Shown here: positions 2,602 through 63,013 of the stretch, in pieces
Numbering within the stretch: position 1 is the first letter of the stretch
Layout of the letters: each line of letters begins with the position of its first letter
Assembly: GCA_010093995.1 (NCBI GenBank)
Contig: ML992502.1
Coordinates: 2,021,925 to 2,085,924, forward strand
Source of the DNA: Elsinoe ampelina
Lineage: Eukaryota
Direction: 5' to 3'
Length of the DNA stretch: 64,000 nt
Translations under genes and position numbers: made by a program
Notes under the pieces: generated by a model
What the model was told of the DNA's origin: nothing
Seen by the model: the letters and a program-made list of their open reading frames with translations, nothing else
The model's database searches: none

Positions 2602-2743
2602 TGTTGTAATGGAAGGCTGGTACAGCTTCTCTGGTACTGAAGAACTGGTACTGATAAGTCAGCGCACGCACAGTAGATAAATCGGTTATTGTAACTCTCT
2701 GAATAAAACACACGTCTCTCGATCCGATTTGCTAGTTATAACA
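2602..2743 (+). repeat. 5' LTR (142 bp)
   Basis: TGTTGTAA...TTATAACA; differs from the 3' LTR at 6 positions. Confidence 0.97.
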
Positions 2744-2766
2744 GGTTATAAGCCCGGCGCTTCTAC
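2744..2766 (+). promoter_or_regulatory. Primer-binding site complementary to the 5' half (anticodon arm) of tRNA-iMet
   Basis: GGTTATAAGCCC directly after the LTR is RIP-mutated GGTTATGAGCCC, followed by GGCGCTTCTAC (about CGCTTCCAC). Confidence 0.85.
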
Positions 2767-2967
2767 AAAAGCACTTAAAGCTATAGCAAATTAAGCGTGT
2801 CATTATTAAAAGGATTACTAAGCCGCCTACACTAAATTCTAGACTAGCTATATTAAGATAAACACTTATAGTAGCCCGCATTAACCCTTTAATTAAACGG
2901 TTTAAACGGCTTAAACAAGCTAATTACATTAATTAAATTAATAGGCCTTTAGCTAATTACTATTATT

Positions 2968-5900
2968 ATGTCTAGATTAGCAAAAATGCTCGAGACTTAG
3001 ATTCTTAAGAGAGGAAGTAACTACAATACTTAGAGATTAACCCTTAAGGTAGCCCTCCTTAAAAAGGATATACTTAGATATACAATTTATAACATCAACT
3101 AGATACTAGCAGTTATAAAGCCTAAAGAACTAGCCCTAGATACTAGTAAAGGCACTAAGGCAATCTATAAGGTTAGGAATAAGACCTAGTACAAGAATAA
3201 TAGAATTACTTATAGTATTATTATAATAAGGATTTATAAATCTATTAGACCTTACTATAGTATAACTTAGAAGACTTTAAAGGAACTTCTAGACACTATT
3301 AAAGCTACATTTAAACCTATTATTTCATATAAGCTGTATATAGCTATCTATAACCTTAATAAGGTAATTATAACAAGTTATAACACCTAAAGGTACTATA
3401 AAGATTTTATAAAGTACTATTATTAATACACTATTACTATAGAGCAAAAAGTAAGCACTATTAGTGCTAAACTAGATAAGTTTAGGCTCCCTCTATACTA
3501 TATTAAGACTATGTTTATTATAGGAATAAAGACTACTAAATAGTTAAGGAGCTAGAGATCTAGCCTTAACTACAAGAAGAGTCTTAAAGAGATAATAGGC
3601 TCTCTTAGAATATAGAAGCCCCTATATAATAGAAGAACTAATCTAAACCCTATTTATAGAGTAGCTAGTTATGTTAAGGATTAATATACTTAGTACACTT
3701 ATTATGTCTACTCTAATGTAGATTGCTTTAAGTAGTACCCTAAGAAAGCACTAAAGAGTTAGAGCAAAAGGAATAATAAAGACAAGTTAAATAACAAAGG
3801 CATAAAGGCTAAAGGCAAAGGTAATAAGTTAAAGACTAAGAAAGTTAGAGGTTAAGTAGCTATTAAAGAATCTAGAGAACCTACTAAGGTAGGTAAATTA
3901 GATAAACGCTCTAATACTAATATTAATATTATTATACTAGTCTATAGGGTAGTAGTAGTGTCTATATTATTATTCTTAACCTATAGCAAGAATAGAGTAA
4001 TCTATAACTCTAGTGTATTAAGGCACTTTATTAAAGACAGGTTATAGTTCTTAACAATTAAGGTATATAAAGGTATTCTTAAATTTAAATAAGCTATTAG
4101 CATAAAGAAGCTACTTAATATAGAAGTTGGCATAGTTAGGCTTACCCTAACTAATAGCAAAGGTAAGAAGTCAATTATTAAGCTTTATAATTGTATATAC
4201 TTACTATTATTACTAAACACTCTTATATCTAATCTTTAGAATAAAGAGGAACTTAGTATCTCTATAGTTAGTAAATCCTTAATAAAGGATAGAAAGGAAA
4301 TTAGCCTTATTAAACACTTTAAAAGAGTTAAATAGCTTAAGAACTTTAAAGTATATAAGCCTTAGGACTATAAGGAATTACCTACAAGGCTAAAACTATA
4401 GAAGCTATAGGCTATAAGAGCAAATCTAGCTATTACAACTACTTAAAAGCTAACATTAGAAAGATAGCACTAGAGGTTAGGCTATGTTAGTAACACTATT
4501 CTCTCCCTTACTAAAAGTTAAGCTATTAGATTAGAAGAACTTTAAACATTAGATCTTAGCTACTATAAACTATATACTATATTAAAGGCATAGAGAGTAG
4601 TATTAAGGGAACTAAGAGATATACTAAAATACTTACTAGATAAGCTCTATCTAGACCTTGTTAGTCCTATTAAACTATAGTTAAGTAAGGGCTATAAATA
4701 TCTTCTCCTTGTAACATGTAGTAAAAGTAAGTATAAGTTTATTACTATTCTCTTCCTTAAGAGTAATATACTAGCAGTAATTAAACTTATCTATATAAGG
4801 AACAAAATAGCCTATAATAAGCTTTTATTTATCTTTATCTCTAATAGAGGAAGTAAATTTAGGAACTATAAACTAGNNNNNNNNNNNNNNNNNNNNNNNN
4901 NNNNNNNNNNNNNNNNNNNNNNNNNNNNNNNNNNNNNNNNNNNNNNNNNNNNNNNNNNNNNNNNNNNNNNNNNNNNNNNNNNNNNNNNNNNNNNNNNNNN
5001 NNNNNNNNNNNNNNNNNNNNNNNNNNNNNNNNNNNNNNNNNNNNNNNNNNNNNNNNNNNNNNNNNNNNNNNNNNNNNNNNNNNNNNNNNNNNNNNNNNNN
5101 NNNNNNNNNNNNNNNNNNNNNNNNNNNNNNNNNNNNNNNNNNNNNNNNNNNNNNNNNNNNNNNNNNNNNNNNNNNNNNNNNNNNNNNNNNNNNNNNNNNN
5201 NNNNNNNNNNNNNNNNNNNNNNNNNNNNNNNNNNNNNNNNNNNNNNNNNNNNNNNNNNNNNNNNNNNNNNNNNNNNNNNNNNNNNNNNNNNNNNNNNNNN
5301 NNNNNNNNNNNNNNNNNNNNNNNNNNNNNNNNNNNNNNNNNNNNNNNNNNNNNNNNNNNNNNNNNNNNNNNNNNNNNNNNNNNNNNNNNNNNNNNNNNNN
5401 NNNNNNNNNNNNNNNNNNNNNNNNNNNNNNNNNNNNNNNNNNNNNNNNNNNNNNNNNNNNNNNNNNNNNNNNNNNNNNNNNNNNNNNNNNNNNNNNNNNN
5501 NNNNNNNNNNNNNNNNNNNNNNNNNNNNNNNNNNNNNNNNNNNNNNNNNNNNNNNNNNNNNNNNNNNNNNNNNNNNNNNNNNNNNNNNNNTAACTAACTA
5601 CCCTTTAGTTATAAGAATCTATAAACTACTTAGGCTAAACAACCTTAAGTTAAACAACTAACATCTAACTACCCTTCTATCCCTAAATATAAATAACAAT
5701 TATCTACCTCTATTAAAGAATAGAAGAAGTAATACTAACATCCTAAACTAGATCCTTAACCTGTTAATAAATAGTAGAAGTAACTTAATATTACTAATTA
5801 TAAAGGTAAAGACCTTATAATACTACTACCTAAAGTTATTAGTGAACTATATTTAACCTTTAATTCTATAGTTAATGTTAATTAACTACTAATATATATA

Positions 5901-7601
5901 TAGAATAAGGATGTTAACTTCCTTATTACACTATTTAATATATAACCTCTAACTAGTAAAAGGAAGAGATCTCTCTTACTATAAGAAACTATTAGAAGGT
6001 CCCTTAGAACATATTACTAGATTAATTATAAGAAACTTAACAATGGCAAGATTATTAGATCTATAGCTATTAATTTTAAGCTAGACCTATAAATAGTAAG
6101 AGATACACTATTCTCTCCTAAAGGTTATTACTAGTAAGCTATAATAGAGGCAGAGTAGAAGGCTCTAATTAACTCTAAAACCTTTTTAATTATTAAGAAA
6201 TCTTAGGCACTAAGAGGTGTTAGGCTAATAATAGGCAAATAGGTCTTTAAGACTAAGAGGCTTACTAATAGCAAAGTTAAAAGATATAAGGCTCGTTAGA
6301 CTATAAGAGGCTTTACTTAAAGAGTAGGTATTAACTTTGTTAGAACCTTTATACTAATACTAAGAGCTAAAACTAGGAGAGTAATCCTTATATATGCTCT
6401 TTATTATAACTAGGTTATTATAATAGTAGATATAGTTACTACATTCCTTAGACTAGATATTAATATTAAGAACTATATCTCCTACCTAGAAGGCGTACTA
6501 ATTCCTAGTAAATAGGACAAGCTTATTGTTCTTATAAAGGGCTTATATAGGCTTAAGTAAGCTACTACCCTCTAGTATAACGCTATAGTTAAGGCACTTC
6601 TATTACTTAGTTTTATTAGATCCTATAGTAATGCCTATCTCTTTATTAATAAGTATTATATAGTTCTTATATATGTTAATAACTTTAGGATTATTGCTAC
6701 TAGGTAGAAGCATATAGATAAGCTAGTTAAAGATCTTTATCTTAAGTTTCTAATAAAGATTATAAACTTAAACCTCTTCCTTAGTGTTTAACTTTATAGA
6801 ACTAAGAACTTAATTAAAATTAAGCAATTACACTACTTAAAGGAGAAGCTTAAAGGTTATAATCTTTACTAAGTAAGAACTATAAAGCATTCTATTAATT
6901 AACTCTATAAACTAACTAATAGCTAAGTTAATACTTAGTACTATAAGACATTTAATAGAATTATTAGTAAATTGCAATATCTAGCTAATAACATAAGGCC
7001 TAATATTAGCTATACTACTAATTACCTAGCTAGGTTCCTTTAGAATCTAACTATAGCTTATATAGTTATAGCTAAGCAGATCTAGAGGTATATTAATAGG
7101 ACTATTATAAAGGGCCTTATCTTTAAGAAGACTAATAGACTATTAGTTAACATAATTAAGGCCTACTCTAACTTAGACTTTGCTAGAGATAGATTAACTA
7201 TAAGATCTATATCTAGTACTATCATTTACATACTTAGTACACTAGTTATTTAGAAGTTAAGGCTATAGAAGATTATTATATTATTAAGCACTAAGGCTAA
7301 ATACCTTACCCTTACTAAGACCTATAGAGAGATTAATTAGTTAAGAAATCTCATTATTAAACTTAGGCTACTTACTAATATTTACCTTAGCCTAACTATA
7401 GTCTTTATTAATAATAAGTTAGCTATTAAACTTGCAAGAGATTATACTAATTTAAGGAGATCTAAGTATATTAATTTAAAGAATTATTACTATAAAGAGC
7501 AGTATAAACTTAGAGTAATTAAGCTTAAGTATATTAATATAACTTAGTAATTAGCTAATACACTTATAAAGCCTAAGTCTCCTAATAAGATCCTTAATTA
7601 A
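2968..7601 (+). pseudogene. Copia gag-pol pseudogene (RIP-riddled)
   Basis: Motifs after mentally reversing RIP: CX2CX4HX4C knuckle ~3685-3726; protease (D)SG(A)SRH ~4005; WHQRLGH ~4465-4485; integrase LHLDLVGP ~4646; RT KWVFKTK/YKARW ~6237-6300, GLYGLKQ ~6540, YVDD ~6672-6683; RNase H YSDSDFAGD ~7164, SSTEAEY ~7285, ADALTKP ~7554. Start is approximate. Confidence 0.93.
4877..5590. other. Assembly gap (714 N) inside the integrase region
   Basis: Run of N. Confidence 1.
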
Positions 7602-7868
7602 TTAGCAAAGGCTAATTACTTAGTATATATCTATACTATATACTTATTTAGATTTTATATATATTGTTATTTTAAGTATATTATTTATACTACTACTACT
7701 TATTAAGCTATCTTATTTGTCTAAAGCTTAAAGTAAATTATTTTATTATTAAGAAGAGAGAAAGAAAAAGCTATTATAACCCTATTACTAGCTACTTATA
7801 CCTAAGCTATATCTACTACTTAGTACTATTATTACCTTTAATAACCCCTACCTATCCCCTACCTCTAA

Positions 7869-9022
7869 TTACTTCTTTATAGAAGGAGAACCCCTTCCCT
7901 TATTACTACTAGTAGACCTTATAGAAGTGTTAGATCTAGACCTACTATGCCTTATTAGTACTAGGCCTAGTATAAAGACATAAATAAGAGAAAGCTAACT
8001 AAAGTAGCTAGTAGCTATAATCCTTATAAGCTCTACTATATAGTTTATTACTATAGTAGCTAAGTTATAAACCTTAGTAGTAGTTAAGTTAGTAAGATCT
8101 ACAAAGTTTATAGGGACTACTATAAAGTAGCAAGAGTTAGTATAAGTTATTAAGGTGTTAACTATACCTAATAATGCCCCTAGTATATAGGCCCTTAGTA
8201 AGAACCTCTAAGGCAAAGTACTACTAAAAGAGATAGACCTTAGGAGCTCTATTAGTAGGTATATTAGGCTATATAGAATAGGTTAGGTAATGACCCTTAA
8301 GCTACTCGAGGTCCTTATAGGTTTAGGAGAGCTAATAGGCCTTAGAGTTAGAGTATAGTTAGCTAAGGAACATCTAGTATATTAGTTGCTATAAGTATAG
8401 CAAGTGTAGGCCTTATTAAGCTAACTAGGCAAAGTAATATACTTACTAAACTTACTACCCTTACCCTTGCTCTAATTATTACTAGGGTTAGATCCCTAAC
8501 ACTTAGTGTAGCAATTAGTACTATAGTAGACTACTCTGCTAGTAGCACTAGAAGCTATTAAAGCAGTAGAGTAGTTAGTAGATCTAGTAAGGTTAACTTG
8601 CTTAGTTAGATCCTTAACTAGAATAGAATTAGTAACTACTAGGTGTATACTATAGGTACTAAAGGCCTAGACTGCTATAGACCTCTAGATAGGATATAAG
8701 TTAGCATAGTTATAATAACTAATTATTCTAAGCCTAAGGAGAGCATTCTAGATTATGTCGGCTAACTATTAAGTCAAAGTCTAAGTTAATTAGGCTATTA
8801 ATGTTAGCTTATGCTATTAATGCTTTATAGCTACTTACTAAGAGTATTAAGACAAGTAATTAGTCTTATAGTAGTATTATAATTAACATTAGAAGTACTA
8901 GGTAACCTTAATAGAGAATTTCTCTTCTTACTACTACCTCCGCTACCTAGTAGACTACTTAGAGCACTAGTACTAGTAGCAATGCTACTAATACCTAGCT
9001 ATTGCTACACTATAGCACTTAT
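7869..9022 (-). pseudogene. Antisense accessory gene inside the copia element: RIP-mutated, ~358 codons, six-Cys DUF3716-like motif, putative intron 8762-8838
   Basis: One minus-strand frame interrupted only by TAG/TAA codons explicable by RIP. Segment 8513-8367 reads C-Y-T-K-C-*-G...G-K-G-S-K-F-S-K-Y-I-T-L-P-S-*-L-N-K-A-Y-T-C-Y-T-Y-S-N-*-Y-T-R-C-S, which gives C-x2-C-x19-C-x10-C-x2-C-x8-C after TAY>TGY. GTAAGT donor at 8838. Confidence 0.7.
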
Positions 9023-9372
9023 ATTATAAGTGTTATTAATATAGTATAGTAAGAAAGTAAAAGTGTTATGTAAAAGAAAAGGCTACTACTATAAGTATAA
9101 TAAAGAAAAGAGAAATTATAAAGAGGCTAGTTAGATACTTATATCTCTTTAATTAAGACTTATAAGCTAGTCTATTTACATGAACAATAGCTGCCTAGCT
9201 ATTGTTAATAGTTACTATTGTTGCTAGCAATTATAAGCTAAACTAATAGTAAATTCTCACTAATGATTAGCTAACACTAACAATTATAAGTAATTATAAA
9301 GAGATAAAGTGATAAGCTAATTACTTTACTTACATGTGACAGGACAGTTCTCTAGCTTTAGTAATCTATACT

Positions 9373-9382
9373 AGAGGGGGAG
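9373..9382 (+). promoter_or_regulatory. Polypurine tract (plus-strand priming site)
   Basis: AGAGGGGGAG immediately before the 3' LTR. Confidence 0.9.
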
Positions 9383-9524
9383 TGTTGTAATAGAAGGCTG
9401 GTACAGCTTCTCTGGTACTAAAGAACTGGTACTGATGAGTCAGCGCACGCATAGTAGATAAATCGGTTATTGTAACTCTCTGAATGAAACACACGTCTCT
9501 CGATCCGATTTGCTAGTTACAACA
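9383..9524 (+). repeat. 3' LTR (142 bp)
   Basis: TGTTGTAA...TTACAACA perfect 8-bp inverted termini, followed by TSD CTCAC. Confidence 0.97.
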
Positions 9525-9643
9525 CTCACCACAGCTCCATCTCTTCACACATCCACCTCACACCTCACCAACACAACCAACAATGCGCCTCCCACCCGCC
9601 ATCATCTCCCACCACGCAATACACCCCCATCAATAACCCCACA

Positions 9644-10303
9644 ATGGTCCGCATTAAACACCGCTACCTCCTGCTCCAGCTCCTCTACCCTTCTGCGCCC
9701 TCCTCCTCCTCCTCCTCCTCCTCTCCCCCCTCCTCCGACCCCCACCAATTCACACTCCACCTCTACGCCCCAACCCCGGACACGCTCACCCCCGCCCTCC
9801 TCGCCCGCCTCATCCGCGACCAAGTCTCCCTCCTCTTCGGGGACCACGGCGCCGGCCTCGTCGCTTCGGGCTTGAAAGTCATGTACCTCTCTGCGCCGAC
9901 GAGTACGGCGATTGTGCGTGTGGGACGGGCGCAGTTTAGGTTGGTGTGGGCTGCTTTGACGATGGTGAGGAGATTGCCCGGGACAGGGGTTGGAGGGGAG
10001 GGGGCTAGGGGAGGGAGGGGGAGGGGGTATGCTGGGCAGAAGGGAGAAGGGGGGCGGGAGGATGGGAGGGAGGTGGTGGTCAGGGTTGTGAGGGTTAGTG
10101 GGACGGTGAGGAAGTGTGAGGAGGAGGTTATCAGGAGGGGGACGGAGGTTGTGAGGAGGGCGAAGAGGGAGGGGAAGGAAGGGGGGTTGGGAGGGTGGGG
10201 GGAGGAGAGGGTGGAAGGCGAAGGGAGGGGGAGGGGGGGAATTGTGGACGATGAGGAGGATGGGGATGAGGATGAGGATGAGGATATGGGGCTGGATTAT
10301 TGA
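9644..10303 (+). CDS. POP5: RNase P/MRP subunit Pop5 (Rpp14/Pop5 family)
   Basis: MVRIKHRYLL N-terminus; LFGDHGAG, VMYLSAPTSTAIVR, VWAALT and VVRVSGTVRKCEEE motifs. Confidence 0.92.
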   Translation: MVRIKHRYLLLQLLYPSAPSSSSSSSSPPSSDPHQFTLHLYAPTPDTLTPALLARLIRDQVSLLFGDHGAGLVASGLKVMYLSAPTSTAIVRVGRAQFRLVWAALTMVRRLPGTGVGGEGARGGRGRGYAGQKGEGGREDGREVVVRVVRVSGTVRKCEEEVIRRGTEVVRRAKREGKEGGLGGWGEERVEGEGRGRGGIVDDEEDGDEDEDEDMGLDY

Positions 10304-10550
10304 GGTTCGAAGGCAGAAAAGGGTGACAGTACGAGAGAAAACAAGGCATAAGGGACGATCAGGATGAGGTTGTAGAGGTGCATTACAGAGGACTTGGAAA
10401 AGCCTGCATGGTCGGCGTATGGGATTTGTATTCGAGATACCCAGTCTGCGATGAGCAGATACGCGCAAGAAATGCGCGAAGCATGAATTCCTTCCTCCAA
10501 CTCCTCGCTGAAAATTACACCAAGCGCGGCCATGATTGACCATCCATATC

Positions 10551-11630
10551 TCATGCTTTCCCTTTAGACTTGAGATCCGAGTCTGACACTGCTCTGATAT
10601 ACACCTTGACCAGCTTGGAATCGATCTCTTCCGTGCCATCTTCGAAACCTGGACTCGTTCCTATCGCCGCCACAGTCCCATCTCCAGCCCATGCCATCGC
10701 CTGCACACCACTCTCCAATCCAGGGAATGCCCTAATACGTCTCTTGTTCGCGCCGTCCCAGAGTATGACCGTTCCGTCGCCTCCAGCACTGGCGAAGACA
10801 TTGGTCTTGATCGGGTGAAATGCCAACGCGTTGACAGGGTATACGACATCTTCTTCTTCTGTACTAGTACGGTGACACTTGAAAGCGTATTTCTTCATCT
10901 GCGCCTCTTCTGAGGGGTCAAACATCTCGACTCCCACACGACCTTCGATAGACGAAATGGCGAAGCCTTCGTCGTTGGGCATACATGCTACGGCTCGAAT
11001 CATGTACTTGAGTGCTGGTTCACGCTGCTGCCATGGCTCGATCACCAAAGGGATAGTCGAGTTGTCTGAAGTCGGCGCACTTTGCAATGTAAGCTGTTGG
11101 AGTGTCGCAAGGTCATAGATGTAAACTTGTCGAGAAGCCATGGCGACCACCAGCTTCGTCGGCGAGACGGAGATTGCATGAGGTACCGAAGGTATCGAAA
11201 CTGACGAAGGAGCATGAGTGAGGGCGCCGTTCTCCAACTCGACAATGTGGATGTGGAGAGTATTATCCCAGCCTGATGAAATCAAGATGTTGTGTTCTGG
11301 AGAGTATACCACATGGCGGGCAGGCTTTTCGTGTGTTGACAATACCGTCTTGCGTCCCGTGTCGAGGTTGATATGAGATACATCATGGTCGAGTCCAGCA
11401 GAGAAAGCCGTGTTTCCGTCAGCTCCAAAGCAAATGTCTAGAACCGGTGCGCGATGCTCTATGCGCATTTCCAAGAAGCTGTCGGAAGACTCGAGCGGTG
11501 AAGGCGTCTCGTAGAGGTAGATGTGGCGGTCCCATGACGAGACGAGGAGACGCGTCGAAGAGCCCGGTGCAAACTTGAGGGCAGAGATCACGTCCGACGG
11601 CGGTTCGGAGAGCTCGTACTGTGATGACAT
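10551..11630 (-). CDS. BUB3: Spindle-checkpoint WD40 protein Bub3
   Basis: MSSQYELSEPPSDVISALKF; SSIEGRVGVE, KYAFKCHR and VYPVNALAFHP motifs; a small upstream exon cannot be excluded. Confidence 0.88.
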   Translation of the reverse strand: MSSQYELSEPPSDVISALKFAPGSSTRLLVSSWDRHIYLYETPSPLESSDSFLEMRIEHRAPVLDICFGADGNTAFSAGLDHDVSHINLDTGRKTVLSTHEKPARHVVYSPEHNILISSGWDNTLHIHIVELENGALTHAPSSVSIPSVPHAISVSPTKLVVAMASRQVYIYDLATLQQLTLQSAPTSDNSTIPLVIEPWQQREPALKYMIRAVACMPNDEGFAISSIEGRVGVEMFDPSEEAQMKKYAFKCHRTSTEEEDVVYPVNALAFHPIKTNVFASAGGDGTVILWDGANKRRIRAFPGLESGVQAMAWAGDGTVAAIGTSPGFEDGTEEIDSKLVKVYIRAVSDSDLKSKGKA

Positions 11631-13448: not shown

Positions 13449-14642
13449 CTAGACGAAACGCAGCACCTGGTGTGGCCCTTCAACCTGCCAGCTCCCTCTT
13501 GTCCTCCTTGTGCTATCCGTATGCGTGGTCATCATGGAATTCCTCGAGCTAGTTACTTGCTCCGGCTCCTTCTGCCTGAGATCATATGGGTCAAAGTCGT
13601 CCAACGCTTCTCCGTCCTCATCATCGCGCATAGCCCTGTTGTGGAAAGCGTTGATACTCCAGACACTGTTCAGCCCGGCATCAATACCGTATTGGCGCGG
13701 CTCTGGTCGTGGATAATACGCTCCATTGGATTTGTCCGGGACGAAGAACGATTGATCGACGCGGGAGATGAGCCACATGTAGACTACAAAGAGCTCGGTG
13801 ACAAAGTTGAAGCAGTAGAAGCTTGCTGTGCTGAGATACCATGGTGGTTCTTGGGCAATTGGACCGTCTGGTCCTGGTGGACCTGGGAGGTAGACAGATG
13901 TGGGTGGTAACCAGCCGGTGCCGGCTCTGAAGGCAGCTCCCAGGGTGAGGATGCATGCAGCGATGATGCATATCCAGATCTTTGTTCTCATCCGTCCTTC
14001 TCCGAACTTGTCTGTCGGGTTGGTGAGGCGTTTCCTTTGAATGCTTGGGAGGAGTCCGATAATGGTGCTGAGTAGCACGACAGGAGCTGGGAGGAAGGCC
14101 ATGACGGCAAAGCAGGTTGAGCCATACAGTTGGATGCTTCGATCGATACGATGGATGTTCGGGTCCAGGGTGAAGAAAGATTGGAGTACAGCTACGACGA
14201 CAGCTATCAGAGTCAGGACGACTATGGCAAAGAGCAGTGCGAAGGCAATCTTGAAGCCTTTGGCCCAGCCGAAAGTAGGATGTTGTGCTCGTATGATTCT
14301 TTGAGCGAAGATAAAGTTGATGCCGAATAGTATAATTGTACCAGCATAGACGAAGACGGTGCTCGCAAGTCCAAGGTTGACCGAGCGAGGGAAGCAGGCC
14401 CACGCTATACGTAACGAGAATGTCCCAATCCGTATCTTGCCAAAGCCGAATAAAGCACCATTGATGACAAATTTGTGCCCGCTCTTCTTGTTCCGTATGA
14501 AGATGGCGAAGCTGGTGACTCCGGCGACTAGGAAGAGGGCCAACAAAGAAGCTGAAACAGGTGCGTCTGGCAAGACGCTAGGTGTTCCACCCAGGAGTTG
14601 AGTATCTGGTGCGTACGGACCTGCACGTCTGGAAAGACCCAT
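13449..14642 (-). CDS. Fungal multi-pass membrane protein (DUF3112-like)
   Basis: GPYAP...LGGTP N-terminus, about 7 hydrophobic helices, FAQRIIRAQHP and FYCFNF motifs; family call from memory. Confidence 0.75.
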   Translation of the reverse strand: MGLSRRAGPYAPDTQLLGGTPSVLPDAPVSASLLALFLVAGVTSFAIFIRNKKSGHKFVINGALFGFGKIRIGTFSLRIAWACFPRSVNLGLASTVFVYAGTIILFGINFIFAQRIIRAQHPTFGWAKGFKIAFALLFAIVVLTLIAVVVAVLQSFFTLDPNIHRIDRSIQLYGSTCFAVMAFLPAPVVLLSTIIGLLPSIQRKRLTNPTDKFGEGRMRTKIWICIIAACILTLGAAFRAGTGWLPPTSVYLPGPPGPDGPIAQEPPWYLSTASFYCFNFVTELFVVYMWLISRVDQSFFVPDKSNGAYYPRPEPRQYGIDAGLNSVWSINAFHNRAMRDDEDGEALDDFDPYDLRQKEPEQVTSSRNSMMTTHTDSTRRTRGSWQVEGPHQVLRFV

Positions 14643-15605
14643 ATCGAGTTTTGTACGTGACCTTTGGCAGAGTGAGGCTACTTCGTCTGGCAATTCTTGT
14701 GTTGAAGATCGACCAGGTAGTCTCTCGTACGTTGCTCTTCGTCAGCAGGATCTGTACGACGTGCAGTTGCAGGGAATCTGGCTGCTCGCCAATGATATCA
14801 GAGGAGGTCGGCACAACAATGCCGCCGACGGCCTTGATAGTTCGCACGTGAGATGTGCCAGATCTGGTGAAAGAGCTACGGTAGTGAGCACCGATGCGGA
14901 TCAAGGATATTGCTCATCCATTCATAGAAGTCGAGTGGCGTCTTTTCCGTGACCCGCTGACGTCTTCTGCAGGAAGAGAGGTATCATCATTACCTCTTTC
15001 TGCAAGCTGCCGCTGGCATGCGATACGCTTCCAAATGCGCTTACGATTTTGGCTTACATATGTGAAGCTGCACGCGGCTTCGTCTCAAGATGCATTACAT
15101 GCAGTGCAGTCCACGTCCGTTGCGAGAGAGAACAAAGACCTCGGAGCTTTTGCAATGATCATCATCGCGCCATTGCCCTTGTGATTCTGCTGATACCTGA
15201 AAGCTGGACGTGCTGCTCCTTGTCGTGAGCTACGGAGAAGTTGGGGCCGCCGTGCGACGTCCGGAGGTCAAGGATGTTTCCATCAGTAGACCAAAAAGAG
15301 CCGCTACCATTCATCCCGTTCCAGATCGTTCCGTCCGACGATGATCCATCGATCCATGAGAGCGCCGCCTACAGTAGCTGAGCAAGATAGATGAAATTTG
15401 TAAGGACACGAGGAAAAGCACCTGCAGAGGAGAAGGCGAGGCATCAGTGAAGGGAGTAAAGTCGGGTGGGGATTTTCAAGGCCTGTCACGTGGCATGTTG
15501 CTAGCTCCACGTTTGATGATCCGCCCATCATTTGTCGGCGCTGCTCGGAAGATGTGTGGGAAGGATGTGTGGATTGCAAATCTCCGTTCCATTCCTAATT
15601 CATTA

Positions 15606-20637: not shown

Positions 20638-21908
20638 TGTGCATGGCGGTAGCGAGGTGCTAGCAGTACTAGGAAGAGACTCTCAGACCCGAATGGCAGG
20701 ATGACAGAAATGACTCGCTCGAGGCGGACTGAAAAGCGCTAGTACCGTAATATCGGGACCGACTACGGCCAGTGATTCGCGTGGTGGGACGAGGCTAAAT
20801 AGATGAATTGCCATGTGTGATGATTGCGTGGCTGCAGCTGGGCTTTTGGAACACGAGCTGTCCTGTCACGGGATTGGGAGGAGGAGAAGCGAGAGGTGAG
20901 CGCCAACAGACATGATGACATGAGTGAAGCATCAGAGCCCTAAGTGCAGTAAATAATTACCTGACACCTGGACAAGCTCTACCTTAAGAGACCCAAAAGG
21001 CTGGAAGTACTGTAAACTGTGCCGATCGCTCGTTTCTGGTTGCTGTCATGCATATTCCCAAAAAAGGTGCAAGCTCGGTACAGGTTGCTTAACGGCCAAT
21101 AACAGCATCACCAGTGCCTACTCCTGTCCATATCTTGCTCGCGTAGACCATTTGTCGCGGGTCTAGCACCGTGTAGCTTTCTCTACGCTCTCGACATTGC
21201 AGTAATCCGTTGCGAGAGCGGTGCACAAACGAGAAACAAATTGTGGACAAAGGGCATCCTCTTCGGACTCCAAATCACCATTTCTCGCCTCTGACTGCCC
21301 TTGCTCCTAAACCTGCCCTCCTTCTTCTCACGTCCCACGAGTTCCCTCCCGGTTCGAAACACTGTAGAGTGTAGACAAACTTTCGTGTCGAAGCAGAGTT
21401 CTTGGACCTCACAAGCTCATCCTCGAAACTCCTCCCTGGCCTCGCCCTCCCCGTACAGTCGGATCCCACGTTCCCTTTCCGTCATAGCGGGCTACACTGG
21501 CGGCTTGTCCCACAGGTCGATCATTCATTCTCGTCTCAGTGGCTGCCACTTCTCGGCCTGCTCCTGACGCGTACGGCCCCCGGCATCTGCGGCTCGCACA
21601 TCATCCGATTCAAGATTGCTGAGCTTTATTCGCAGGGACATGGTCATTTGGAATTGACCTCGTCCGAATCAGCTTCCCTGCCATTGATCACCAGGATTGT
21701 CTCCGTTCTTGGTTGCAGAAGCTTCATCTCGAACACCATCTGTCCGGCGTGCATCATCTCTGTCCGTAGACAAAAACTATTCGACCTTTACGCGAGACGC
21801 CCCGTCAGCAGGACTTTTCAAAGAGCTTGGTAATAACAGGGTGACACACCGAGAGCTTTTCGACCTCCCTTCCAGACACTCCAGGCGCGCGCGCCTGGAG
21901 CTATTCTG

Positions 21909-24333
21909 ATGACGGGACCCGACGCCAGCATAGAGCCCTCGCTGCAAGAAGCTCCAGCCCCGGTCAGCAAACCAAAGAGAGTCAGAACAGGATGTCTGAC
22001 ATGTCGCGAGCGCCATTTGAAGTGCGATGAGGGACTTCCAAATTGTCAGAATTGCAAAAAATCCAACAGAATATGCAAGCGAGGTCTCCGACTGAATTTC
22101 ATTGACACACAGACACACCAGCCGCCTCGCGTCGCCTTCAGCAACGAATACAACATCTCCTTTCTCGACGAGTCACGAGAGATCGCATCCGAGTATCAAG
22201 GCGGCGTCGAGCGATATGGAAAACGCGGTCGTCAAAGCATTGGTGGGCTACAGCAACCACCGCAGCATCTCCAACACCAGCAGCCGCAGCATCATCATCA
22301 TCACCATTCGCAGTCTCACCAGCAACATTCTCATATCATGAGCCAGCACCACAATGGCATGCACCAGTCACACATGCATGATCAGCAGCGCCAACCTCAG
22401 ATCGATCCAAGCTTGACTGCTTACGATCAACAAGCCGCTGCTCCTCCAGCGCCCTCCATGTCATACCAAGAATTGCCTCCTATACAAGGTATCTTACCCG
22501 ACTCAGGCTACTCGGAAGATCCGAATGCGATGACCAACCAGATCAAGTTCGACGCTCCTAAGTACGACCAAGGGTCCGACTACGGCAACAACTTTACTCG
22601 ACAGCAATCCACCACCCAATCTCCCTTTTCGAACCAGCACCTTACACACCCACCGTCCTCGAGTCATGGTCAACAAGAAGCCGAAAGCGACACCACAAAC
22701 GAAAAGCGCGACTACCTTGAGAATCCCGAAGAGGTTCTGTTTCTGCAGGTGTTTGTGGAAGAAGTAGGGTTATGGATGGACTCGATGGATGCACACAAAC
22801 ATGTAACATTGCGACGTCCTCTTCATACGGCGATACTGACAACAGCAGTTCTCAAGACTTCTTCCCTTTCACTCTCTCCAAGAGCCAATGCTGCTCAATG
22901 CCTTCCTCGCCTGCGGTGCACGACATCTCACTCTCATTAATCCGATCTATACCGAAGAAAAAGCACTGTACTATTATGATACTGCAACTCGACATTTACT
23001 CAAAGCTCTCCAAAATCCGAACCGCGATACCGTCATCTGTGCCACCACGGCTGTAATTCTTAATGTCTACGAAATCATGAGCGAACGAGCGCTACAGAGG
23101 ATGAACCATATTGCAGGAGCTCGGGCGTTGATCAAGGAATGTGGCTGGAATGCGAGAGCTACAGGCATTGGCTCCGCTTGTTTCTGGCTCAATGTTGGCC
23201 TCGAAGTCCTGAGCTGTCTTCACTTCAACTGGCAGGTCGCTTGGGACCCGGACGACTGGGGCGTCGACATGGACTTTACGAGGGAGATCCACAACGGACG
23301 AGAAGAGAATTGGACACACCGGATGTTGTACATTGTCGCAAAAGTATGCAATTTCAGGGCCACGATACCGCGATTTCAAGAGGCGGATCCCAGGGATGAG
23401 GAGATGCGTCGTCAGAACCGCTACAGCGAGTGGCAACGTCTGAAAGGTTGGGCGGATGCATGGAACGACAACATACCAAGGACGATGCACCCGATGGCGT
23501 ATGTTCACTCTCATCAGACGACATCAAAGTCGGCGTTCCCCGAGGTCTGGCTCATTAAGCGATCGACCATTGTAGCACGCTTGTTCTACCACACAGTCAT
23601 GCTTCTCCTGGCTCAAATCCACCCGTACATGCCTGCGGACAATCCAGACATGTGGAGCATGCAAAAGCAGCATTCTCAAATGATTTGCGGAATTGCTGCA
23701 CATGTCAAGGATCGGTAGGTCCTTCGACTCTGTACTCCATGCCCTCGCTAACAGATTTACAGTGGTGTCGCTTCAGTCGCCCTCCGATCCCTCGCTCACG
23801 CAGCAGAGTGCCTTACCGACCGCAGGGAGCAAGAAGAAGTCCTGCAGATCTTCACGAAGATCAACAAGGAGACCGGCTGGAGGATCGCCTTTGTCTTCAA
23901 GGAACTCAAGGAGCGATGGGGCTGGAAGGACGAGCAGATGCCGAACGTACACATTACCTCCAACTCGGATCCCAAGGTTCGCAGTGTCGGTCACAACCAA
24001 GGCAGTGCTTCTTTCGCCAATTCCAGTCCTCAGACATATCCGCAGACTAGTATGCAACCTTCACCTAACCAGAACTTTGGGTCGTCAAGTGGTCAAGGGA
24101 AGTCGGCAGCGCCTCCATCCGGCTCGACGACAAATGTGGCAGCTCCTACTCCACGACGACCACCATCTGGTATCGTCAACCCCATGTTTGCCACCGCGGA
24201 CTTCAACATGCCACAACATCCGTACCAGAACGTGTACGTGGCACCGAACCATGCAGGGCAGCATCAGACGCAGTGGGGATTTGCGAGTGGAGGACACGGT
24301 GTCGGGGTCGGAAACAACAATACGTACTACTAG
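21909..24333 (+). CDS. Zn(II)2Cys6 transcription factor with a C-terminal fungal TF domain; 3 exons
   Basis: RTGCLTCRERHLKCDEGLPNCQNCKKSNRIC; His/Gln-rich linker; introns 22803-22848 and 23715-23762. Confidence 0.9.
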
Positions 24334-52962: not shown

Positions 52963-54893
52963 ATGCTCCCCTTCAACGGCCATGCTGCGCAGGGTCAGCA
53001 ATACGCCCAACAACCTCCTCTTAAGAAGCACAAGACAGGCGGTGGAGCTGTCGTCACCCACTATCCACCACCGCCGGGATATGTTCCGCCACCCAACGCC
53101 CAAATTCATCCCACGGCATGGCAGACGGCACAGCAAATGTACACCCCAGCCCAACAAGCGTGGATGCAACAGTACTATCAGCAGTATGCACAGGCTTACC
53201 AGGCATATCCGCAAGCAAATGCCTGGCCTCAGCAGTACGGTTATGTCCAGCCTCAGTTTCAAGCACAACCATTCCCGCAGCAGCAATATCATGTTCCGGC
53301 CCTTCAAGGCTATCAGGGACAACCTACTCCTGATCAGCAGTGGCATAGTCAAAGTCCCCACAATGGACCTGCTGCAGCTTCTCCTCAAAATTCTTTGCAG
53401 AATATGAGTCAAGGCTTCGCAAAGCCGGGTCCACCCGCTTCAGCAACGCAAAGTCAGCCTGGACAGCTGTCCCGTGCCATGTCGGCCACATCATCCACTG
53501 CAGACAACACCGACGTCAACCCTGAGTATAAGCTGGCACATCCATTCGATGAAGAAGATTATTGCAGAGAATCATCATTTGCCAAAGATGGCGAGTCCGT
53601 TGATTCAAGATTTAGCTTGGGAAGCATTCGTAAATGGCATGCTTGTTGCTCGTTATACCTCTGCTAATTCTTCTCAGTCCATGTATCGGCTCATGCCGTG
53701 CAAACTGTCTTACCTGCAACTTTTCAAGAAGCCGAGCTCGAACTCCTTGCACCCAAAACTCGTGACCACGAGGATGAGTCCATATCTCAGTACTTTGTGA
53801 ATCACAAGCTTTCAGAAGTGGAGTTGAGCGTTCGCCAGATCGAGGAGGAGTGGGGCATTGTCAAAGATGACATGATTTTTCGCGAATTTCCACACAGCAA
53901 TATCGCGAAGTACGTCACCGTATCAGAAGTCAAGGCGAATCGCGACCGACCGGATCCGCACCCAGAAATACGGTATCCACCTCCAGATGAGCCTGAACCA
54001 GCAAGGCCCCCTACGCCGGAGGTGAAGGAGGAGGTCATTCAAGAAGTCCAGCAAGCCCCGGAGGATGAAGAGAGCAGCGGCGAGGAGGATGCAGCCATGG
54101 ATCTCAGCTCTGACAATGAAGACGAGCCTGGGGTACAGCCTGAAGTGAAGCTTGAGGTGGAGGCTGAGCCTGAGGAAAAGACGAACGTTCAGCAGGCCCA
54201 AACTTCACCAACAGCTGATGAGCAGAGAGTCTTGGCATCCATCAAACAAGAACTCCAGCAGCATGACAGGCAACACGGTTACGGACAAGACCAGGAGGGC
54301 AGTCGAAGGACATCTTTTGGTGCATCTGGAAGCCCCATGTCGAATCCACATTCGCATAATGGCACACCACCAATGCACCAGGAGCAGTTTCAGAGATCAA
54401 GTCCTCGCCGCAACGGGCCAGGGAATTATCGTGGACAGAATCATCAGGGACAGCCCCATCGCAGATTCGATGACCGCCGAAGGTCGACTGGCCCTTCGAT
54501 GCAGTATGGACCTCATAACGTTCCCCCTCCTCCCGAGGCCGTCGACTACGAAAACCCATGGAGAGGCCCAGACATGATGTTTGAACGTAGGGGCTCCACC
54601 GGATCCGACACAAGCCAGCGTACTATCCCAGGTGGAGATTTTGAGAATGGTGATCGCGACAGGACACCGCAGCACAGACCACAGAGCAGACCGCAGCAAG
54701 ACCAGAACGGCAGTGGCAAGAAGCGTGGCTTCGATGAAATGGACCGCTCGAATCGCAACAGAGGCAGTCGCCAGCAAGATCAGCACGAGCCGCGTCGTCA
54801 CCGATACAGGCCCAAGGTATCGGAAGCTTACAGGTACTGTCATCACTTCCTTGAGACTCGAGCAAAACTAATACTTTCAGCCGCCGCTGGTGA
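52963..54893 (+). CDS. Uncharacterised, largely disordered Gln/Pro/Tyr- and Arg-rich protein; 3 exons
   Basis: Introns 53630-53677 and 54834-54880 join two long ORFs in frame and give the C-terminus PKVSEAYSRRW*. Confidence 0.75.
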
Positions 54894-57125
54894 TGTTCCT
54901 GTAAAGCTTCCAAAGTCACGAAGCCGTGGGTGGCCTTTTCTGTCTCCTCTGCGAACACTTGAGTTCAGCACTACACTTCTCCTATTGTACAACGAATTTC
55001 CTTTGTTCCATTGATCAATCATTGATCATCACGCTGCGAGCCTGGCAGGTCAAGCTGGGAGCAAAAAAAGTGGCAATGCATAGCGAGGAAGGAAGGACAT
55101 GTCCGGATGGGCATTTAAGGGAGTCATGGTCTGACCCTTTCCTTCATCTGCTTCTCTACCTTTTCGGTCCCACAGTTTAACAAGACATTATCGTGATATT
55201 CGTGCCTGCCTTTCTCTTACTTATTACCATGTTATCTCTACCTGTCGTGATTGATGGTTCGTAAGCCACAATCGCGATACAAGTTGTCCATGACTGATCT
55301 TCTTTGTGCCATGTATTACACCCACACCACAGCGGCTCCAGGCGTTCCTCTGATCTTCCAAGCACGTGCGGCTCTTGTGATTCGTCCTACGCCCTACTCT
55401 GCGCGACAAGCTTGTGGGGCCAAGGCGTCTTGCAACTCCTGCCACAAGACAACCACATTCGCCTGAAAGCTCGATCTTGCCTACTTAAGCACGTGCACGA
55501 ATGCGGACTTTTGCGGACCTTACATGTCTGAAAATGTCTTGCTTGGTTCAATTGACAGACACATGACAGCTGAGACGACCTGAAGACATACACTTTTTTT
55601 TAGTATGCCCTGGAATAGAGCTACTGACGCAACGCTGCATGAACAGCAGCTGCCGACTCGATGAACCAACGATCTTGTTTGAATGAACTCGAAGTTTAGC
55701 TTCTTCGCGGGAGGTAGGTATGCGGACCTTGACCATGTCCGGAGTGTCATCTGCGAACATGGGTAGCTCTTAGCATCATGAGCGAGCAGTTTGATGTAAT
55801 GACGATGATCAAGCTAAATCGGCGCATCGACATTGTGATGCGATGGTCATTCAGCACATTTCAATAACGATGACTTGTGATGTGCATATACATTGGGAAA
55901 GGTACTGGCAAACGCCGCAATGGATATCCACAAGATGGTGTTCTCAATATGAGAGATGGACACAGTCGCAAATGCAGCATGACGGAGTCCTTCCCCTCTC
56001 GTTTCCAGTGAAGTTGCAGCCAGCAAATCCTGGCCAAGTCTGGGCTAGCTGGTAGTTCGGTAGCGGGATCGTCAGCCAATGTATTCGATTGCCCAGCATG
56101 GCAGATGAAGCATGTGGTGTGGTCCGCGGTTGCTAATCGGACATTTTCTCACGAATCGATCTGCCATGCACTTTGCGTAGGAACCAAGCAAGTAGAAGTC
56201 GCTGCACTTTTTTGTCACGCACCTCAGTTCACGAACCCTGCGCCAGATGCGACTGGATGCCGGCCAGACTGCTGGCTGGCATCAAGGGATCGTCGATAAG
56301 GGACTGGTTTGATGGTGGCTTGTAAATCGGAGGAGCGAAGACGTGGTTTGTGTTGTTCAAAGGCACTACTCCATTGGTTCGCCGGCTTGCAGAACACTAC
56401 TGCACTCTTCGCAGGATACAATCTCCTCTTCCATGCCTCGCAGGTGTCGAATAAACAGAAGAATCACCGCGTCTGGCACTCCGGACAGGTTCCCCTCGCG
56501 AGGACCTTCCGTGCACACCCTGTCGATCGGGGGGGGGGGAGCAAAGCAGCCGCACTAGGGCGCTCTTCTGGTTCACACGCTTGAACGCCTGGGGTTAGTC
56601 TCAATCCTTAGTGTTTGGCTACGCGGGGAAGATCTGCAGTAGCGCTGCATTAGCCCTGGTTTAGCAGCTTGTCAGTCGCAGCCGTTATCCGTGCTCCGCT
56701 GTGCTTTGCGGTGCTTTCCAATTGCACCTCCAATCCACGCCATGATAGCCCGTCTTTGTTGAGAGGACGTCTTCTTGTCCTCCTCACTGTTTCTCACACG
56801 ACCACTCGACCTGTTGTGTGACCTGGATACTCTCCAATTCTTCGAGTCGATCGTTCTCACACGCTTTTCGTATCTGCTTCTCGCGTCCTGCCCTTCCATA
56901 ACCGCCGCCACGATTATAGCATGGCTGGTCAGTAACGTCTGGCTGTTTGAACATTTCCCTACCCGCATCGCGTGCCACGACCTGACGACGGCATACGATA
57001 CCTGGACGAGATACGAATACAGAGATCAATCCATTGCTCACGACAGTCTGTTTCCCCAAACTCAATTGCTGGTGCTCAACTCGAATTCATCGAGTCTCGA
57101 CTCCGCCAGCGCTTAACGATCAACC

Positions 57126-60765: not shown

Positions 60766-62586
60766 TCACCTGCCGATGGCACCTAGACCGTCCATGTCAT
60801 CCACCACTCCGCCGGAAAGCGTTGACGCACTATCATCCTCTATCTCCGGTTGCTGCTGTGGGTCTGGCGTCTTCGGGACATGCATACCGGAACGTCTGCC
60901 ACGGTGGTCGGTGCCCGGAGCCGGGCGCTGAGATGCGTTCGACGATGTACGCTGTGACGATGCTGCGCTGCCTGGCATTCTTTCACCTTCTGGAGCGTCG
61001 TTCGTTGTTCGGGAGAGGTCTGGTCGAAGCCCTAGTTGAGACGGTCTGCCTGTTGGCTTCTTTTGGGAGCCTCTACCGAGCTGACTTGACGATCTAGGTA
61101 TACCTTTAGCAGAGCGGCCAGGATTGCCCTGTTCTCCTTGATGTGGGGTAGGAGCGGTCTGACTAGCAGACGATTGTTGACTACCGACAGGAGGAGCACT
61201 TGACGAGAGAGCTGTAAAGGCACTCTGCGCGGATGACTGTGGCGTTTCATGGTAGTTGCGACGGGATCCTGGCCCTACAGCGAAGCTGTCGGAGCTTGAT
61301 GGTGTTGGTTGGGTGACTGCTAACTTGAGGAAATCCATGAGCTGCTCCTGGGTGATTCCGGTGCTGGCGATAAGTTGAAGACCCTTGATGATATCTGCAT
61401 GACCTGGCGTAGGAAAGCTTTCCGTGACAGCACTCGGCTTTGCGACTGTCGGGAAGTTCTCTCCTTTCATGTCCATTTCGGGGGCTAACGTGTCGTCCTG
61501 GAAGGACAGTCTAGCACCGTGGGGTCGTGAGATTTGCTCCTGCTCTGTCAAGCCTTGACGTGCACGGTTGTCAATACTCTTCTCTCTTTGAGGAGCAGAG
61601 GTCCGAGCCGCTGCATTCACGTCGGCGAGATCCAGTGGAACATTCGTCTGATCAGCTGCGACCTCTACTGTATCGACGCCGTCGATCATATCTTCAAGCG
61701 CGTTGAGGTCGTCTGTAGGAGTAGTATCATCATCCTCGTCATCGAGGGCGGCCTCGTGCTCGTTCATTGGTTCTTGAAAGTCATTGGCTTCATGCTCTCG
61801 ATCGGTTGCTAAGATTCCGTCCTTATTCTGACTGACTTTGGCCCGGCCAGCGGTGTCGTCCTCTTCCTGCTCATCTTCGGGGTCATCTTCTGTCTGCGAC
61901 CTAACGGGAGAGCTTGTTATTGTCACGGCCGCGGTAGCCCCAGCTCTCCTGCTGTCTTGTGCGTTGCCAATCCTGTCTTGTGACAGCTGCGAGCCACGCT
62001 TAGCCCGTTTACGAAGAGGCTCCTGCTCCGGGATGGTTTGGTCGCTTGTTTCGAGATCGTCTTCCACTGGAACTTTCGACAATCTCGAAGGAGTGCTGTG
62101 CCTCGTCTCGTGCGTGTCTTTCCGTTTTTTCCTGCCCGGCAGGTATTTGTCTTGTGGATGATGCTTCCTACTATAGTTATGGTACTTCTGCGCAGCCGCC
62201 CGTGAAGAACGCCTTGTGGCATTTGCATCTGGCGAGCGTGAGGTCGGCATTTCCTCATCCGAGTGTTGATCCGTTGGAGGCGTATCACTGACAGAATCGC
62301 CATCGTCGCTTACGTCGGAATGGTTCGAAGAGGAGGAACGACTGGAGACATCGCTCGCTGCGCTGGAAGAACGCCATGACTTGGGCGATGGACGAGGCAG
62401 ATCCATCAACTTTGCGTACTGTGTTGGCTTCATCGCCTTGTCGTAAGACGGATGCAATCGCCTGTCGTAGTTGATATGCTTGCCCTCGTTGCGGGCCGAG
62501 CGACGAGGACCGCTTTCGCATGAAGATGTATCGTCAGGACCTGGTGTAGACATATCTGCCTGGTTCGAGGATCGCGAAGGAGGCAT
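60766..62586 (-). CDS. Hypothetical low-complexity (Ser/Asp/Arg-rich) protein, ~606 aa
   Basis: Long uninterrupted ORF with a twice-repeated RRS.R...NY...HP..D motif and a basic NLS-like stretch; no recognisable domain. Confidence 0.65.
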   Translation of the reverse strand: MPPSRSSNQADMSTPGPDDTSSCESGPRRSARNEGKHINYDRRLHPSYDKAMKPTQYAKLMDLPRPSPKSWRSSSAASDVSSRSSSSNHSDVSDDGDSVSDTPPTDQHSDEEMPTSRSPDANATRRSSRAAAQKYHNYSRKHHPQDKYLPGRKKRKDTHETRHSTPSRLSKVPVEDDLETSDQTIPEQEPLRKRAKRGSQLSQDRIGNAQDSRRAGATAAVTITSSPVRSQTEDDPEDEQEEDDTAGRAKVSQNKDGILATDREHEANDFQEPMNEHEAALDDEDDDTTPTDDLNALEDMIDGVDTVEVAADQTNVPLDLADVNAAARTSAPQREKSIDNRARQGLTEQEQISRPHGARLSFQDDTLAPEMDMKGENFPTVAKPSAVTESFPTPGHADIIKGLQLIASTGITQEQLMDFLKLAVTQPTPSSSDSFAVGPGSRRNYHETPQSSAQSAFTALSSSAPPVGSQQSSASQTAPTPHQGEQGNPGRSAKGIPRSSSQLGRGSQKKPTGRPSQLGLRPDLSRTTNDAPEGERMPGSAASSQRTSSNASQRPAPGTDHRGRRSGMHVPKTPDPQQQPEIEDDSASTLSGGVVDDMDGLGAIGR

Positions 62587-63013
62587 GCTGGTGGTTGTGG
62601 AGTCATGCAAATCTCCTACCAGGATGTGTGAAAGATAGAAGTGCTGTGTTTACCAAAAGTGAGGTGCTTTGCGAATCGGCCATGTCGCGACGCGACTGAA
62701 TCAGGCATCAATTGCGTCCATGTCACGCCGATCACGTGCATGAAGCGCGAGAGCCGGGGTCGGCGGTAACGACAGCCGCGCTGGAAAGACGTCGTGTTGC
62801 AAGGGCGACTTCGAGGTTCTCACCGAATACGGCTTAGTCCAGTCGTGAACTGCTTCCGTGTTTTCTAGCAAATTAGTTGTGCCTCATTGCTGGCTGTGAT
62901 ATGTTCAGTTGAGTGAGAGCTAGGGAAACCAAACATCATTGAGACTTTCTTGCTGTAGCGTAGCATGAGTGAGATGGGCTTGATTGCTTTTGATTGTTGT
63001 AGAATGTAAAGCG

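Follow-up and report, generated by a model that had tools for sequence, protein, structure and literature searches.

A candidate antisense gene remnant, degraded by repeat-induced point mutation, between pol and the 3′ LTR of a Ty1/Copia retrotransposon of Elsinoe ampelina

What fills the ~1.78 kb that separate the end of pol from the 3′ long terminal repeat (LTR) in a Copia retrotransposon of the ascomycete Elsinoe ampelina? We addressed this question in a window of 64,000 nt (assembly GCA_010093995.1, contig ML992502.1, positions 2,021,925–2,085,924, forward strand), to which all coordinates below refer. An earlier note on this DNA had proposed that the element, at 2602–9524, carries an extra antisense gene for a six-Cys protein of the DUF3716 (PF12511) type. 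Our analysis leads us, with moderate confidence, to regard the segment as the remnant of an additional antisense gene, killed by repeat-induced point mutation (RIP), that lies in a ~1.25-kb module of a multi-copy ascomycete Ty1/Copia family; in plant LTR retrotransposons such antisense genes between pol and the 3′ LTR are called aORF-3R. A RIP-degraded coding remnant on the opposite strand is what we retain of the earlier proposal, whereas the DUF3716 identity is unsupported.

The element is a structurally complete Ty1/Copia insertion, made up of the following parts.

2597–2601, no strand: target-site duplication CTCAC, left copy, 5 bp; the same pentamer follows the 3′ LTR
2602–2743, plus strand: 5′ LTR, 142 bp, TG...CA, 96% identical to 9383–9524
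2744–7604, plus strand: gag-pol, RIP-degraded and broken by 714 N, identified by RVT_2, by Copia polyprotein matches and by profile A1
9373–9382, plus strand: polypurine tract AGAGGGGGAG, adjoining the 3′ LTR, read directly
9383–9524, plus strand: 3′ LTR, 142 bp, pair of the 5′ LTR
9525–9529, no strand: target-site duplication CTCAC, right copy, read directly

The LTR pair, the CTCAC duplication, the polypurine tract and an RVT_2 match in the plus-strand frames (E 6e-21) bear out the earlier assignment to Copia. The reverse transcriptase (RT)–RNase H part matched Copia polyproteins with E 4.7e-39 and a query cover of 94–97%, and profile A1, built from 14 Copia polyproteins found as relatives of this part, matched the RT–RNase H of the element with E 2e-70. 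The pol end had been placed at ~7601, ~1.78 kb before the 3′ LTR, and this too holds: profile A1 aligned up to its position 1326 of 1334 at window 7604 (pol frame of 5592), the first in-frame pol stop is at 7599–7601, and the 3′ LTR starts at 9383. The spacer measures 1778 nt, and 7605–9382 is not pol. Within gag-pol, the 714-N run (4877–5590) lies roughly where the integrase core is expected, and the pol frame shifts from coordinate phase +1 to +0 across 5591–6190.

Any coding sequence in this spacer has to be read through the mutations that the element has suffered. At 2602–9524 the window contains an AT-rich island in which the guanine-plus-cytosine (GC) content falls to 20–33%. TpA/ApT is 1.8–2.65 inside the island versus ~0.5 in the flanks, and (CpA+TpG)/(ApC+GpT) is 0.15–0.41 versus 1.1–1.8. 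The island is a product of RIP, and RIP has come close to saturation, because CpA+TpG are down to 0.03 of the dinucleotides of the element (0.145 in the host) and TpA is up to 0.207 (0.03 in the host). All six differences between the two LTRs are transitions between CpA/TpG and TpA. The LTRs themselves are hardly mutated (GC 0.415, TpA 0.092, three RIP-type changes each), and the interior of the element is saturated.

The earlier note described one continuous minus-strand frame from ~9022 to a TAA at 7871–7869, broken by about a dozen stops, all TAG or TAA. Such a frame does not exist: 9022..7869 spans 1154 nt, which is not divisible by 3, and over 383 codons the stops number 54, 63 and 32 in the minus frames from 9022, 9021 and 9020, respectively. 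Counted from 9098, the frame closed by the TAA at 7871–7869 has 36 stops in 409 codons; as had been stated, these are exclusively TAA or TAG, with no TGA (36 of 36). No single frame has about a dozen stops, and ~10 is reached only as the sum of two pieces. The basic KKR patch reported near the N-terminus is present, in a minus frame other than the TAA-ending one. The minus strand can be divided as follows.

7869–7871, minus strand: terminal TAA of the minus-strand frame, read directly
7872–8684, minus strand: main coding remnant of 271 codons, interrupted by 8 TAG/TAA stops, recognized by stop poverty and by a purine/pyrimidine (R/Y) score
8685–8833, minus strand: link between the pieces, possibly part of an intron; no frame stands out
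8834–9022, minus strand: upstream coding piece in the other minus frame, 63 codons with 2 stops, from ATA at 9022–9020, with the basic patch GSSKKRNS

In 7872–8684 the proposed frame has 8 stops versus 24, 24, 59, 49 and 42 in the other five, and the upstream piece includes 55 stop-free codons (8998–8834). As a null we used 500 dinucleotide-preserving shuffles of 7610–9372 and recorded, over all frames, the lowest stop count of a 271-codon window. This minimum had a mean of 21.5 and a lowest value of 11, and 0 of the 500 shuffles reached 8. The low-stop frame at 8684–7872 is beyond chance. Its density of 3–4 stops per 100 codons is that of the RIPed gag and pol frames and is as expected if RIP acted on Gln and Trp codons; at pol columns conserved in at least 11 of the 14 relatives, Trp is now a stop in five of six cases and Gln in three of six.

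Coding character was assessed independently of the stops with a score of R/Y dicodons, trained on host open reading frames (ORFs) with Pfam matches, which is immune to RIP because RIP makes only transitions. In leave-one-out trials 14 of 16 host ORFs were positive in frame, the two failures being Zn-cluster factor ORFs, and the highest out-of-frame value among the host ORFs was 0.134. The true gag and pol frames, used as controls, scored 0.176 and 0.187, each best of six. The proposed frame of 7872–8684 reached 0.172, also best of six and above all out-of-frame host values, and the upstream piece at 8834–8998 reached 0.439, again best of six. The two minus-strand pieces keep the statistical marks of former coding sequence. 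They may be exons of one gene of ~330–360 codons, joined over an intron: GTAAGT is found at 8838–8833, where the upstream open stretch stops, GCTAAC at 8705–8700, and splicing to an in-phase acceptor at 8675 or 8672 would yield 328–329 codons with 10 stops. On established retroelement biology, an antisense intron would be expected to survive retrotransposition because the sense genomic RNA is unspliced there.

Searches with the predicted protein returned no relative. Neither the six read-through frames nor the 271-amino-acid (aa) piece matched any Pfam family at E ≤ 10, and this negative is weak because RIP hides known domains in the element: at E ≤ 0.01 RVT_2 alone was detected in gag-pol, while the relatives also carry PF14223, PF22936, PF13976, PF00665 and PF25597, families of gag, protease-like, pre-integrase, integrase and RNase H type. 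A Pex24p match (E 0.11–0.13), seen in two overlapping tiles among 28 tiles of 60/90 aa and a 55-aa piece, was rejected as hydrophobic noise. With phmmer, the 271 aa found no relative among 1.84 billion representatives; the match to P0002, a repetitive 1446-aa protein aligned in five short stretches, was set aside as compositional. The word-index search with residues 170–270 at E ≤ 10 yielded 26 candidates, none of which scored, PDB sequences gave no match at E ≤ 1, and viral contigs gave 52 pattern matches and 0 relatives. When 79 Copia loci from metagenome contigs were searched by tblastn and blastn, there was no nucleotide match, and protein matches appeared only at E ≥ 1.5.

The same 79 loci served to compare the spacer with those of other Copia elements, which are distant relatives (29–41% identity). 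Forty-three loci extend to the C-terminus of pol and have ≥800 nt beyond it; by self-BLAST criteria an LTR pair is present in 17 of these 43, the spacer being measured from the pol match to the 3′ LTR. It is 24–1651 nt long in the 17 relatives, with a median of 83, and the 1778 nt of the window exceed all 17. The ORF check covered the only five loci with a spacer >400 nt, and no convincing antisense ORF was found in these five. One of the spacers (L045:9841–11490; 1651 nt, 24% GC, LTRs 86% alike) has no ORF >87 codons and is a long non-coding or degraded tail. At L078:4153–4986 (66–75% GC), overlapping open frames of 150–215 codons run on both strands across the pol end and the spacer; these are probably a high-GC artefact.

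Several observations weigh against the antisense gene. The pieces 9022–8834 and 8684–7872 lie in different minus frames, and the intron that joins them is a model only, because many other in-phase GT..AG pairs are available, with 9–11 stops each. Within 7872–8290 the +1 frame has an R/Y score of 0.189 versus 0.177 in the proposed frame. Within 8547–8323 the codon-aligned +0 frame is stop-free over 64 codons and the −1 frame over 55; both contain fewer stops than the proposed frame and exceed its R/Y score. A codon model for which gag-pol in its RIPed state had served as training set was not positive for the candidate frame; this model was weak even in cross-validation (0.16–0.20 bits per codon), and the R/Y model was used instead. 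Furthermore, there is no positive protein identification, because no relative appeared in any search. Taken to their limit, these points would mean that there is no gene here, and that one frame happens to be poor in TAA and TAG in what is either an extended non-coding 3′ region or the leftover of a foreign repeat nested there. The absence of any homologue or domain from our searches agrees with this, as does the occurrence of long non-coding pol-to-LTR regions elsewhere, such as that of L045. We nevertheless consider it very improbable: no shuffle reproduces the stop poverty (8 stops versus 24–59 in the other frames), the R/Y score is as high as that of the true gag-pol frames and exceeds every out-of-frame host value, and the module shows no similarity to the Copia profile (best profile E 0.65) or to the element's own gag-pol. 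Returning to the antisense gene, we kept the proposed frame through 8547–8323 because it has support to either side of this stretch and RIP introduces no indels; owing to the competing frames it is least secure in 8513–8367, where its 49 codons include 4 stops.

It is in this least secure part that the six-Cys motif had been seen.

8367–8513, minus strand: Cys/Tyr-rich stretch, read as a six-Cys motif, with 4 Cys, 6 Tyr and 4 stops in 49 codons

Read directly, 8513–8367 gives CYTKC, stop, GSNPSNN, stop, SKGKGSKFSKYITLPS, stop, LNKAYTCYTYSN, stop, YTRCS. The spacing C-x2-C-x19-C-x10-C-x2-C-x8-C is present when Tyr counts as Cys, and it arises only with four Tyr codons, picked by eye, taken in this way: as read, two of the six motif positions are Cys and four are Tyr, and two real Cys (stretch positions 1 and 38) fall outside. 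The motifs quoted around it need correction as well, 'G-K-F' being really G-S-K-F and 'R-S-x-N-x2-A-L' really R-S-T-N-Y-S-T-A-L. Against the DUF3716 signature (GPF..C / GAC.NC / RCS), the flanks as read have R-C-S, S-K-F in place of GPF, and K-A-Y-T-C-Y in place of GAC.NC.

Neither the clustering nor the bare spacing is exceptional. Four of the five Cys of the 271 codons sit in the 49-codon stretch, a concentration that scan permutations reach in 363 of 5000 cases; for Cys and Tyr together the count is 691 of 5000. By this measure the Cys/Tyr cluster is not significant. If either Cys or Tyr is allowed at each position, the bare spacing turns up at 13 sites, spread over 8 of 17 other frame-regions of the element, and 86 of 5000 permutations contain it. 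Once F, A, R and S are required at its flanks, 0 of 5000 permutations of the 271 residues show it, but these flanks were picked post hoc. The reading of TAY codons as former TGY is itself sound in this element, because both Cys of the integrase zinc finger are now Tyr: the motif WHxRLGH...CxxC, upstream of RT in the gag-IN (gag–integrase) frame, reads XHXRLGY...YxxY in a weak alignment (5.7 bits). At conserved pol columns, however, the residue ancestral to a Tyr of the window is Tyr in 9 cases, His in 5, Cys in 2 and Gln in 1. The expected PF12511 match failed to appear, with none at E ≤ 10 in 36 read-through queries (7 whole-frame and 29 tile).

Could the antisense gene then have encoded a DUF3716 six-Cys protein, as an element-borne, nucleic-acid-binding accessory factor? 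We consider this distinctly unlikely. With Tyr as Cys at four places, the spacing is flanked by F-x2-C, A-C-x2-C and R-C-S, the flanked pattern is absent from the permutations, Cys-to-Tyr change by RIP is demonstrated at the integrase finger, and DUF3716 genes ride another fungal transposon, REP9 of Zymoseptoria (PMC8232023). Opposed to this are the lack of a PF12511 match and of any homologue among the 1.84 billion representatives, the two of six positions that are Cys as read with two real Cys left over, the ordinary clustering, the recurrence of the bare spacing, the ancestry of Tyr in pol, and a frame that is least secure exactly in the motif stretch.

A fungal Zn(2)-Cys(6) binuclear cluster (PF00172) has the spacing C-x2-C-x6-C-x5-12-C-x2-C-x6-8-C. 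This candidate was rejected, the spacing here being x2, x19, x10, x2, x8 even after Tyr is turned to Cys, and Zn_clus had no match in the module frames, though the same profile detects the host gene at 21837–22937. A Cys/His-rich, possibly zinc-binding stretch in the predicted antisense product is plausible.

We then asked whether the segment is peculiar to this copy, using sequencing runs of two organisms. Organism A, the likely source species, is represented by two DNA runs with ~33 M letters of contigs, possibly from the source sample and so not independent of the window; organism B is represented by two runs (X3 and X4) with much larger data sets, ~540 M letters. The comparison divides the spacer into three parts.

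7605–7831, no strand: post-pol spacer; runs X3 and X4 of organism B cover 7600–7843 at depth 33–234 and then end
7832–9084, minus strand: ~1.25-kb module with the antisense gene remnant; borders suggested by variant contigs
9085–9372, no strand: stretch leading from the module to the polypurine tract; all frames lack a coding signal; covered by contigs of both organisms, A and B

Words of 7600–9400 were present at 0.62 and 0.47 in the two organism A runs and at 0.05–0.06 in the organism B runs. In run X1 of organism A, 3325 contig pieces of at least 80% likeness fell over 7600–9400 and covered all 30 bins; their summed depth is not a copy number. The listed differences between X1 contigs and the window comprise 49 transitions and 1 transversion, and some alternative letters recur in many contigs (for instance, 31 contigs have T>C at 8283 and 28 have it at 8461). 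At codon 8285–8283 TAG stands in most other copies in place of the window's TAA, so that these copies are also mutated there. X1 records that differ from the window by 12–17 letters bridge both module edges, at 7832 (7760–7875 and 7802–7919) and at 9085 (8994–9115). Several variants of the whole segment, on the same flanks, thus exist in the likely source species. Because variant contigs bridge both edges, the segment belongs to the family and is not a one-off; its absence from other copies, which the earlier note had named as evidence against its proposal, is not what we observed.

In organism B, 7600–7843 and ~9064–9400 are covered at depth 33–234. Loose ends of X3 and X4 contigs at 9090 run into unlike sequence, cover resumes at ~9064–9090, and one X4 contig joins 7829 to 8198–8348. 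This suggests that ~7832–9084 is a module, missing or substituted in related elements, and that different cargo occupies the module site in related Copia elements. Organism B contigs are 87–95% alike to the post-pol flank and to the flank before the polypurine tract, with different or patchy sequence between. The module edges have neither a target-site duplication nor a terminal inverted repeat, and a nested DNA transposon was rejected on this ground. The GC content is 0.326 in the module versus 0.27 in gag-pol at an equal TpA load, and rough estimates of the content before RIP are ~0.50 for the module, 0.54 for the host and ~0.44 for pol. Capture of a host-like gene fits, because the estimate for the module is close to that of the host, unlike that of pol.

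The remaining contrary observations concern the module as a whole. Two single X1 contigs skip the module, with joints from 7831 to 9085 and from 7875 to 9328, respectively, and organism B covers the middle of the module only in patches, at depth 0–13; for both reasons the module may be dispensable cargo. It could then have been a passenger, a host gene or part of one that was transduced into a single founder and hitch-hiked with it, with no role for the element and perhaps no expression at any time. A host-like pre-RIP GC content and R/Y score, a discrete module without target-site duplication or inverted repeats, the rare module-less variants of organism A, the patchy coverage in organism B and the lack of such a gene in the 17 Copia relatives (ORFs checked in the five with a spacer >400 nt) all accord with this. 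Transduced ORFs, however, are typically present in one or a few copies (PMC7264820), and here many variants carry the segment. Moreover, the stop density is not above that of pol, which fits a frame that was open when RIP struck, a point blurred by RIP saturation. On balance we judge a mere passenger unlikely, and we continue to prefer an additional antisense gene of the element.

An antisense extra ORF of this kind is already known in plant elements and in Boty of Botrytis. Published cases of an antisense ORF that lies after pol and before the 3′ LTR are gene23 of maize Grande and those of rice RIRE2, Silene Retand and Phaseolus PvRetro13 (PMC7264820); such aORF-3R genes have no database similarity, some of their products are nuclear, and a regulatory role has been proposed (PMC7264820; PMC8365987). 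Our candidate resembles them in its position after pol and before the polypurine tract and 3′ LTR, its antisense orientation, its apparent presence in many copies, its lack of database similarity and the nuclear or regulatory role suggested for it. It differs in that the hosts there are plants and Retand is Ty3/Gypsy (PMC11963269), whereas this is a Ty1/Copia element of an ascomycete, and in that the gene here is known from RIP-mutated sequence alone. The fungal example is brtn, the antisense gene of Boty-like elements in Botrytis cinerea and Sclerotinia (Zhao et al. 2011, as cited in PMC8365987 and PMC7264820). It shares with our case the extra antisense gene downstream of pol in a fungal LTR retrotransposon; Boty (BcGypsy1) is a Gypsy element, however, and the likeness is to the published description of brtn.

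Two further systems offer partial parallels. REP9-1 and REP9-2 are DUF3716 genes on REP9, a class II (IS3EU) transposon of Zymoseptoria tritici (PMC8232023). REP9 likewise combines a fungal transposon with accessory genes of unknown function, and the domain would be the same if the DUF3716 reading were true; it is, however, a DNA transposon, and DUF3716 was assigned there by a database match, whereas here there is no match. Transduction, as in maize Bs1, also places host-like sequence in the internal region without a target duplication of its own, but usually in one or a few copies (PMC7264820), and here many variants carry the segment. In the open-access literature we found no antisense or additional ORF in a fungal Copia element.

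On these grounds the history of the locus may be sketched as follows. The gene would have entered the element by capture of a host-like gene and would have been transcribed antisense, either from a promoter of its own in 9085–9372, a possible antisense promoter since it lies upstream of the gene, or from the 3′ LTR. Its product would have combined a basic patch at the N-terminus with a stretch rich in Cys and His that possibly bound zinc, and would most likely have acted in the nucleus, on the nucleic acid or the expression of the element; to call it a trans-activator or an anti-silencing protein is pure inference. The gene is now dead: RIP has converted nearly every CpA and TpG, and at least 10 stops stand in the frame.

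Outside the element, the window is a segment of an ascomycete chromosome, dense in genes and with ~53% GC. Its host genes include those for a P450 and a Zn2Cys6 factor as well as housekeeping genes (RPN1, an RSE1/DDB1-type gene, RIO1 and pantoate ligase), and long open frames of the host at 9605–10660 (minus), 13452–14741 (minus), 53668–55011 (plus) and 60769–62649 (minus) have no Pfam family at E ≤ 1e-5. The GC content is back at the host level within ~100 nt of the ends of the element; therefore RIP has not leaked into the flanking P450 gene (729–2400). Another AT-rich stretch with RIP-like features, 1–395, opens the window on its left side (GC 0.36 and TpA/ApT 1.76 over the first 500 nt). 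Neither blastn against the Copia element nor the Copia profile gave a match to it, and it is probably the end of another degraded repeat.

Two procedures used here can be reused for other RIP-wrecked DNA: the R/Y dicodon score, which recovers true frames (the gag-pol controls were best of six), and the internal calibration of conserved residues, in which Trp and Gln become stops, His and Cys become Tyr, and Asp becomes Asn. The practical weight of the locus itself is modest because the gene is dead and has no protein identification. It seems quite improbable to us that a Copia lineage of fungi took up an intron-bearing antisense gene encoding a Cys-rich protein of the DUF3716 type, retained it and was amplified together with it. 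If it were true, DUF3716 would, together with REP9, be a recurrent transposon-borne accessory domain in fungi, and could be a regulator or counter-silencing factor of unrelated mobile elements, which would provide the first functional context for this orphan domain. Extra antisense genes of LTR retrotransposons are known mostly from plants and from Boty. An ascomycete Copia family with an antisense gene would broaden that picture, and would offer a fungal system for it if a non-RIPed relative exists.

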